DNA from: Dirinaria sp. TL-2023a
Taxonomy: Eukaryota
Length of the DNA stretch: 60,725 nt
Reading direction: 5' to 3'
NCBI GenBank assembly: GCA_051941275.1
Contig: JAVEBF010000008.1
Location: forward strand, 1 to 60,725
The notes under the pieces are model-generated. The model searched no databases and was not told the DNA's origin. It saw only the letters and a program-made list of their open reading frames with translations. The translations under genes and the position numbers were made by a program. Of the stretch, positions 1,384 through 2,508 are shown in pieces. Every line of letters starts with the position of its first letter. Within the stretch, counting starts at the first letter, position 1.

Positions 1384-2169
1384 TTACTTGAGCTTCTTCT
1401 TCGGCCTTAGCTGGTTCGTATGGCCACACTTCTTCTTGCGGCAGTTGGTTGCCCGGGGAGGAAGACGGGCCTGTGAGATCATATTAGCCTTTCGAGATCC
1501 CCAGATGAATTGGCTTTGAAGCGCAGGGCGACACTGTGGATGCATGGGACACACGTACGTAACATTTTCGACAGACCATCTTGTCGCAGTTGTACTTGCT
1601 AGCTAAGGCCTTGAGGGAGGGTTCGATGATGCCACCGCGCAGCCGGAGGACGAGATGGAGAGTGGACTCCTAAATGCGTCATATGTCAGCGCTTGTTTAA
1701 GGGAAACGCGGCTCTCTAGATTTGCGTTCTTGTTCGCGACATTGCTCGGCGTTTTATGATCGGAATTCACCACAGCTAAATTGCCAACGAGGCAGTGGGA
1801 CCAAGTCCTTACCTTCTGAATGTTGTAGTCGCTCAAGGTTCTGCCATCTTCGAGCTGCTTGCCGGCAAAGATCAAGCGCTGTTGGTCAGGTGGAATGCCT
1901 TCCTTGTCCTGGATCTTGGCTTTGACGTTGTCGATCGTGTCGCTCGATTCCACTTCGAGCGTTATGGTTTTCCCCGTCAGGGTCTTGACGAAGCTATTAA
2001 GAATTAGATCTGCTTTTCAAAGCATACTCAAGCGAAGGTCGGATATCAGAGAAGTCGTGGGTGCTGTGGTGCTGTGGGGAAGGTGGAGGGATTACATCTG
2101 CACTGCAATTTGGACTTGATGTTAGCACAAGTTGTTCGATATCTTCGACTCCTTGTAAGGGAACCTACT
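1384..2169 (-). CDS. RPL40: Ubiquitin-60S ribosomal protein L40 fusion; coding exons 2169 (1 nt), 2102-2096, 1993-1813, 1669-1559, 1470-1384
   Basis: The exons sum to 387 nt = 128 aa + stop: [11 protein letters not shown]...LRLRGG followed by [52 protein letters not shown]. All four introns are GT..AG. Confidence 0.97.
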
Positions 2170-2508
2170 GGCTGTGGTATTACGCTCTGCTGACTTGGTA
2201 GATGCTGAGTATCGATGAAGTTTGTGGGATTCACGACGTTTAAGCTAAGCGAGACCGCTTGGTGCCACGCTATGCCAAATCGAGGTTCGAGGGGTTGCAC
2301 TTTGGGCCGGGGGCAGTTCCGCCACAAAGAAACCGGTCAGCCTACATGCGTAACATGTACTCGGACTTTTTATTCTTCGTTAACAAAAGGTTGGAATCTG
2401 GGACTGCGCGAGATAGTCTCGGAGTGGAACTACATATATAACTGCCTACCTTCTTTTCTAAGCGTCAAGGTGCGGGTCTCACAGCATGGAAAAGTCTTCT
2501 GTTTGCTG

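Follow-up and report, generated by a model that had tools for sequence, protein, structure and literature searches.

A split start codon and a seven-nucleotide microexon predicted in a fungal ubiquitin-eL40 gene

Introduction

Where does translation of a ubiquitin gene begin when no contiguous start codon precedes it in the DNA? The question is raised by a locus on the minus strand of contig JAVEBF010000008.1 of Dirinaria sp. TL-2023a (GenBank assembly GCA_051941275.1). The analysed stretch, positions 1 to 60,725 of this contig, is referred to below as the window. The initial annotation placed here a ubiquitin-RPL40 gene whose initiator codon is interrupted by an intron between A and TG and is followed by a 7-nt microexon and a further intron. 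It considered this arrangement new, and suggested that the two splicing events gate the synthesis of ubiquitin and eL40. Two questions follow: is the split of the start codon forced by the sequence, and is it likely to be a regulatory device?

Gene structure

All minus-strand coordinates of this gene model were reproduced base for base from the sequence by script. With exon-intron boundaries shown as vertical bars, the minus strand reads ...CACAGCCA (A at 2169)|GTAGGT...GCTAAC (2126-2121)...TTGCAG (2103)|TGCAGAT (2102-2096)|GTAATC...TCTAAT...TTAATAG (1994)|CTTCGTCAAG from position 1993. The predicted elements of the gene and its two neighbours are listed below; L numbers denote the related loci described in the next section.

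2169..2169, minus strand: last base of exon 1, which carries the 5' leader and the A of the initiator; placed by the sequence, the comparison of donors and the enumeration of two-intron solutions; the leader is A/C-rich and ATG-free for 178 nt upstream
2103..2168, minus strand: intron 1, 66 nt, GTAGGT...GCTAAC...CAG, with the branch site 19 nt before the 3' end; splits A|TG; position common to L004, L006, L008, L011, L012, L040 and L018
2096..2102, minus strand: 7-nt microexon TGCAGAT, CDS bases 2-8; the sole AG|...|GT piece in the window able to complete ATGCARAT
1994..2095, minus strand: intron 2, 102 nt, GTAATC...TCTAAT...TAG, phase 2 in codon 3, after CDS nt 8; position common to the yeast-like locus L007
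1813..1993, minus strand: exon 3, ubiquitin residues from I3 (third base) to K63; Pfam PF00240, E 3.2e-27
1670..1812, minus strand: intron 3, 143 nt, after CDS nt 189; common to L004, L005, L006, L008, L011 and L040
1559..1669, minus strand: exon 4, ubiquitin C-terminus (..LRLRGG) and the N-terminal half of eL40; Pfam PF01020, E 3.1e-14
1471..1558, minus strand: intron 4, 88 nt, after CDS nt 300; common to L008, L011 and L012
1384..1470, minus strand: coding part of exon 5, the C-terminal half of eL40 and the TAA stop (1386-1384); Pfam PF01020, E 4.3e-15
2512-3642, minus strand: Rrn7/TAF1B-like RNA polymerase I factor, upstream neighbour on the same strand; PF20645, E 3e-25
21-848, plus strand: Yip1-domain protein gene, convergent downstream neighbour; PF04893, E 7.1e-15

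Joining the five exons by script (2169, 2102-2096, 1993-1813, 1669-1559 and 1470-1384) yields 387 nt, that is 128 codons and TAA, the length that had been claimed. All four introns are of the GT-AG type. The translation starts with MQIFVKT, and its N-terminal domain of 76 amino acids ends with LRLRGG and matches the ubiquitin family (PF00240) in the Pfam search of exon 3. Right after the GG follows a tail of 52 amino acids with four cysteines (IIEPSL...CRKCY...NCRKKKCGH...KLK), which matches Ribosomal_L40e (PF01020). There are no other ubiquitin genes in the window. The locus thus carries a ubiquitin-eL40 fusion gene of the RPL40 type, and its short introns are in the style of an ascomycete fungus. 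For the predicted gene model with both the split start and the microexon we estimate a probability of about 0.85 from the sequence and the comparison with relatives.

The 5' end of the gene allows little freedom. Neither ATGCAGAT nor ATGCAAAT is present as a contiguous sequence in the first 8 kb of the window, whichever strand is read. In the region 2700-1993, all ways to restore ATGCARAT before exon 3 were enumerated for a single GT-AG intron or a pair of them, each 35-600 nt long. No solution with one intron was found in this enumeration. Two introns gave 11 solutions, all of which use the microexon 2102-2096 and a single preceding A and restore MQIF; they vary solely in the A|GT chosen as the donor of intron 1. 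All 11 split the initiator as A|TG. The claim that the gene has no AUG initiator unless intron 1 is removed holds. Both the predicted A|TG split and the microexon are thus dictated by the sequence.

Intron 1 has the form of an intron splitting a start codon, A(2169)|GTAGGT..GCTAAC..CAG|TG(2102-2101), with a branch site present; its position is kept in the orthologues (six loci with the microexon and L018), and its sequence has diverged. The piece AG|TGCAGAT|GT at 2102-2096 has the form of an internal microexon (<=15 nt), is needed for the reading frame, and recurs as TGCARAT in six other loci. The 11-mer AGTGCARATGT has a single occurrence in the 60,725 bases of the window, against 0.05 expected from shuffles, and it was found in 7 of the 80 related loci, where six of the matches lie 56-156 nt upstream of the ubiquitin exon. 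As judged from these counts, the pattern exceeds chance.

Comparison with related loci

Metagenome contigs were scanned with the exon-4 reading frame spanning the ubiquitin-eL40 junction, which yielded 80 loci. An eL40 motif is present in 60 of them, and none was found in the other 20. The 60 loci with the motif have the following candidate 5' ends.

Uninterrupted ATGCARATH...: 38 of 60
A|TG intron and 7-nt microexon: 6 of 60 (L004, L006, L008, L011, L012, L040)
A|TG intron only: 1 of 60 (L018, caagA|GTATGA..CTAAT..CTAG|TGCAAATCTTT)
Intron after nt 8 only: 1 of 60 (the yeast-like L007, ATGCAAAT|GTATGT..369 nt..CAG|C)
ATGCAR|GT: 2 of 60 (L001, L048)
Unclassified: 12 of 60, mostly contig ends (L003, L005) or lineages with another layout

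Seven loci have the intron after nt 8 and enough upstream sequence, and six of them also have the A|TG intron. Conservation of the structure in relatives removes most of the novelty, as the initial annotation itself had foreseen for this outcome.

The six loci with the microexon share the pattern A|GT(56-86 nt)AG|TGCARAT|GT(56-156 nt)AG|YTTCGT, where the bracketed lengths are those of introns 1 and 2, and every donor has G at position +5. CTRAY branch sites are seen in 11 of the 12 introns; none was found in intron 1 of L040. Exon 1 ends with caagA, aaacA, aaagA, aaccA, caccA and caaaA, with A at position -3 in all six cases, whereas the window has agcc-A with G at this position. The leaders are A/C-rich. 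They contain no ATG for at least 130 nt above the donor in six of the seven loci, the window included; L011 has an ATG at -67.

The identity of exon 3 to that of the window is 79-86% on the DNA level in the compared loci. Outside the splice signals, introns 1 and 2 cannot be aligned across the seven loci, and their mean pairwise identities are 0.46 and 0.49. Hence the loci represent independent species, and the 7-mer together with its splice sites is under selection. The gene for the Yip1-domain protein is also found downstream in L003, L004 and L011 (54-60% amino acid identity), and the Rrn7/TAF1B gene upstream in L011, L012 and L002 (29-34% identity). These shared neighbours show that the loci are orthologous. 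The neighbourhood is kept on both sides in L011, on the upstream side in L012 and L002, and on the downstream side in L003 and L004. A protein atlas search with the Yip1-domain neighbour gave assignments no finer than Eukaryota, and in one cluster Ascomycota was the most frequent phylum. The two downstream introns (CDS positions 189 and 300) recur in the relatives in varying combinations.

A fixed 7-mer between AG and GT, drifting introns and a Kozak-like A|GT are what a real spliced start is expected to look like. The predicted split-start layout is conserved in several related fungi and is a fairly ordinary gene structure.

Two further matches found among the loci were rejected. In L022, 28 nt coincide with the spliced junction string, but 9 nt of these belong to the leader and the remainder to conserved coding sequence; the coding regions are 69% identical and the proteins differ, so this match is a coincidence. 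The match AGTGCAAATGT in L029 is due to chance: it lies away from the ubiquitin gene of that locus, and no ubiquitin exon follows it.

Alternative donors and initiators

Upstream of the microexon, 11 A|GT positions lie at a distance of 35-600 nt, and thus intron 1 could have the same acceptor and another donor, for instance A|GTCAGC (2195) or A|GTCGAA (2150). The architecture would then be the same, and the start codon would still be split as A|TG. However, the donor GTRNGT is found at 2169 only (GTAGGT), the alternatives having C at +3 or lacking the consensus. The 66-nt intron that starts from 2169 also falls within the range of 56-86 nt observed in the six relatives, and its GCTAAC is located at a normal distance. 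The assignment of the donor to 2169 rests on the consensus and on the comparison with relatives, and any of the other ten A|GT positions would be a very unlikely choice.

A different possibility is initiation at the unspliced GUG (2103-2101), on transcripts that begin in intron 1 or retain it; in that case intron 1 would play no part in coding. Indeed, GTG-CAG-AT is in frame, and G always precedes TG. But this G is merely that of the acceptor AG. GUG is a poor initiator in fungi, and in a ribosomal-protein gene with very high expression such a start is implausible. Nor does it explain why all seven loci have an A|GT donor in a Kozak-like context 56-86 nt upstream, or why the leaders are free of ATG. 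Initiation at this codon is hardly credible, and assembly of the AUG by splicing from the donor at 2169 is the preferred reading.

Proposed route of splicing and translation

With the start codon assembled in this way, the initiator AUG would be absent from the DNA and created by ligation of the leader A (2169) to the microexon 2102-2096. The second ligation, of the microexon to exon 3 (1993), would complete codon 3 (Ile3). We infer that the junctions 2169^2102 and 2096^1993 are used in RNA. Both introns are short, have canonical GT-AG ends and CTRAY branch sites, and would most likely be removed constitutively by intron definition. Since the microexon leaves only 7 nt between the acceptor and the donor, removal of introns 1 and 2 would probably be sequential. 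On the mature mRNA, scanning ribosomes would initiate at the AUG that they meet first (context GCC-AUG-C), and the resulting 128-aa precursor would be cleaved by deubiquitinases to release ubiquitin and eL40.

RNA with intron 1 retained would have no AUG at the start site. Retention of intron 2 in silico gives M-Q-M-stop, as had been predicted, and such RNA would be expected to encode this peptide. Thus only fully spliced RNA would be productive. This need for full splicing is a passive consequence of the layout and not a demonstrated control device. Taken together, the data on the window and its relatives indicate that the structure is real and conserved, and that its splicing is probably constitutive.

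Possible regulation

It had been suggested that the two splicing events form a special, possibly autoregulatory gate. The two introns around the microexon would then be a control point that tunes the output of ubiquitin and eL40, either by autoregulation by these products or by stress-regulated intron retention, microexon skipping or use of the downstream AG. Several observations agree with this suggestion. The protein can be obtained from fully spliced RNA only, and the layout is kept over considerable divergence. Yeast ribosomal-protein introns are mentioned as known regulators (10.1101/2020.08.11.247098). Finally, of the seven loci, the window has the poorest splice signals in intron 2 (donor GTAATC without G at +5, branch site TCTAAT, acceptor TAG), and a weak donor and branch site of this kind would suit regulated retention. 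However, the weak donor is peculiar to the window, as the other six loci have G at +5.

Yeast introns of the RPL30, RPS14B and RPL22B type are autoregulated via a conserved RNA structure bound by the protein product of the same gene. The introns considered here are similar to them in that a 5'-proximal intron of a ribosomal-protein gene has to be removed before translation. The difference is that no conserved RNA sequence or structure that could be bound was found in the ubiquitin-eL40 introns: outside the splice signals nothing is conserved among the seven loci, and the 226-nt pre-mRNA segment folds with a z-score of -0.69, with an equal or better fold in 46 of 200 shuffles. The Rfam search gave no match for the whole window at gathering thresholds or for positions 1300-2600 at E up to 1. 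Neither did the tRNA search produce a match, and together with the Rfam result no intronic snoRNA or known element was found.

The sequence features that could be taken for regulatory signals have simpler explanations. The tandem acceptor noted in the initial annotation does have a second AG, located at 2099-2098, but this AG is just a part of the glutamine codon CAG. In L040 and L018, where glutamine is encoded by CAA, the sequence is TGCAA and has no second AG; in the other loci the second AG is again that of the CAG codon, which argues against a regulated tandem acceptor. The M-Q-M-stop peptide is a by-product of AT|GTRAGT: it arises in six of the seven loci and fails in L008, where the donor is GTACGT. 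The C-rich tract after the donor of intron 2 was considered as well (fraction of C 0.51 versus 0.26 in intron 1, in all seven loci); it was dropped, as it is not clearly above the downstream introns, which average 0.38 with a range of 0.15-0.70.

Thus, introns 1 and 2 share only splice signals across the seven loci, and control of ubiquitin and eL40 output at this point is unlikely. The weak signals of intron 2 leave small room for regulated or inefficient splicing in this particular species, and the chance of that is slight. A stronger version, to which we give slightly less credence, would be an anciently conserved checkpoint in filamentous ascomycetes, in which two splicing steps in an obligatory order control the supply of ubiquitin and eL40. 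In this species, the unusually weak donor of intron 2 would permit conditional retention and so yield a degraded M-Q-M-stop decoy. Such a checkpoint, if real, would make the production of ribosomes and ubiquitin depend on spliceosome state or on stress. On present evidence, no new regulatory mechanism is revealed, and constitutive splicing of the conserved split-start gene is the preferred reading.

Relation to known systems

The intron after nt 8 is the classical intron of the Saccharomyces cerevisiae genes RPL40A and RPL40B (UBI1/UBI2), and the sequence of L007 given above agrees with the proposed correspondence between intron 2 and this yeast-type intron. The position and phase are the same (ATGCARAT|GT...AG|C, phase 2 in codon 3), and so is the encoded fusion protein. 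However, yeast and L007 have a contiguous ATG and a single long intron (369 nt with a TACTAAC-type box in L007), and they have neither the A|TG intron nor the microexon.

Introns of phases 1 and 2 in codon 1 are described as 'relatively rare' (PMC1626468). A survey of Yarrowia lipolytica lists 42 introns whose 5' splice site directly follows one of the three bases of the start codon (A, T or G), and ascribes to such genes the highest expression and splicing efficiency (PMC13309789). Such a pattern of start-proximal introns fits a ribosomal-protein gene. The ubiquitin-eL40 gene resembles these cases in that an intron is predicted within the initiator codon of a highly expressed gene and the AUG would exist in spliced RNA only. 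It differs in having a second intron 7 nt later, and neither survey (PMC1626468, PMC13309789) makes any mention of ubiquitin or RPL40.

Internal microexons are common in at least one fungus with a good annotation: 1,165 gene models of Coprinopsis cinerea are stated to contain an internal exon of <=15 nt (PMC12230235). A regulated case is the microexon switch of Trichoderma Xlr2, described as alternatively included and changing the protein (PMC11121469). As in these genes, the microexon of the ubiquitin-eL40 gene is a very short internal exon flanked by short introns on both sides, and the gene model breaks if it is omitted. In contrast to the alternative microexon of Xlr2, it would be obligatory for any product. 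Introns in the 5' untranslated region that abut the ATG (L034, L042, L057) are located at the same boundary between the leader and the coding region of the same gene, but at position 0 rather than +1.

The ubiquitin-eL40 locus thus joins two known kinds of structure, introns splitting start codons and fungal microexons. No paper on an A|TG intron or a microexon in a fungal ubiquitin-eL40 gene was found in full-text searches of the literature; public annotations may well carry the model. The practical consequence concerns annotation. The DNA lacks the start codon, and a 7-nt exon has to be placed; gene callers that are naive or based on open reading frames will therefore miss or truncate this essential and very highly expressed gene. 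Seven independent loci with A|TG and TGCARAT form a compact and well-supported test case for fungal gene prediction that is aware of microexons and split starts.

Intron positions around the start codon

The ubiquitin-eL40 gene is a clean example of intron positions clustered at one start codon across lineages, at 0, +1, +6, +8 and +20. Besides the positions discussed above, other lineages have an intron after codon 2 (L001, L048) or after about nt 20 (L010, L034).

The more distant ubiquitin-eL40 locus L018 (positions 1240-1360) has a candidate A|TG intron of 37 nt, caagA|GTATGA..CTAAT..CTAG|TGCAAATC, and no intron after nt 8. Hence the A|TG position either is older than the clade with the microexon or was gained twice. 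The other introns of L018 are also very short, 36 and 45 nt, at CDS positions 157 and 215.

In L034 (250-310), an intron in the 5' untranslated region abuts a contiguous ATG, caag|GTGAGT..TCTAAT..ATCAG|ATGCAG, and similar arrangements are seen in L042 (~1003) and L057 (~1193). As such introns are located 1 nt from the A|TG position, one possibility is that an intron slid by one base.

The ubiquitin-eL40 contig L014 reads ...gcGTGCAAATCTTCGTC at 2200-2215, with neither an ATG nor an AG acceptor before TGCAA, and no ATGCAR piece was found within 900 nt upstream. It may represent another layout, a pseudogene or a fragment of a transcript.

The locus L002 (798) has the syntenic Rrn7 neighbour, yet its ATG is contiguous and its introns are at CDS positions 49, 70 and 330. 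In L001 (~415), the introns at 70 and 330 are the same as in L002, and ATGCAG|GT is present in addition. Thus introns around this start codon turn over between related lineages.
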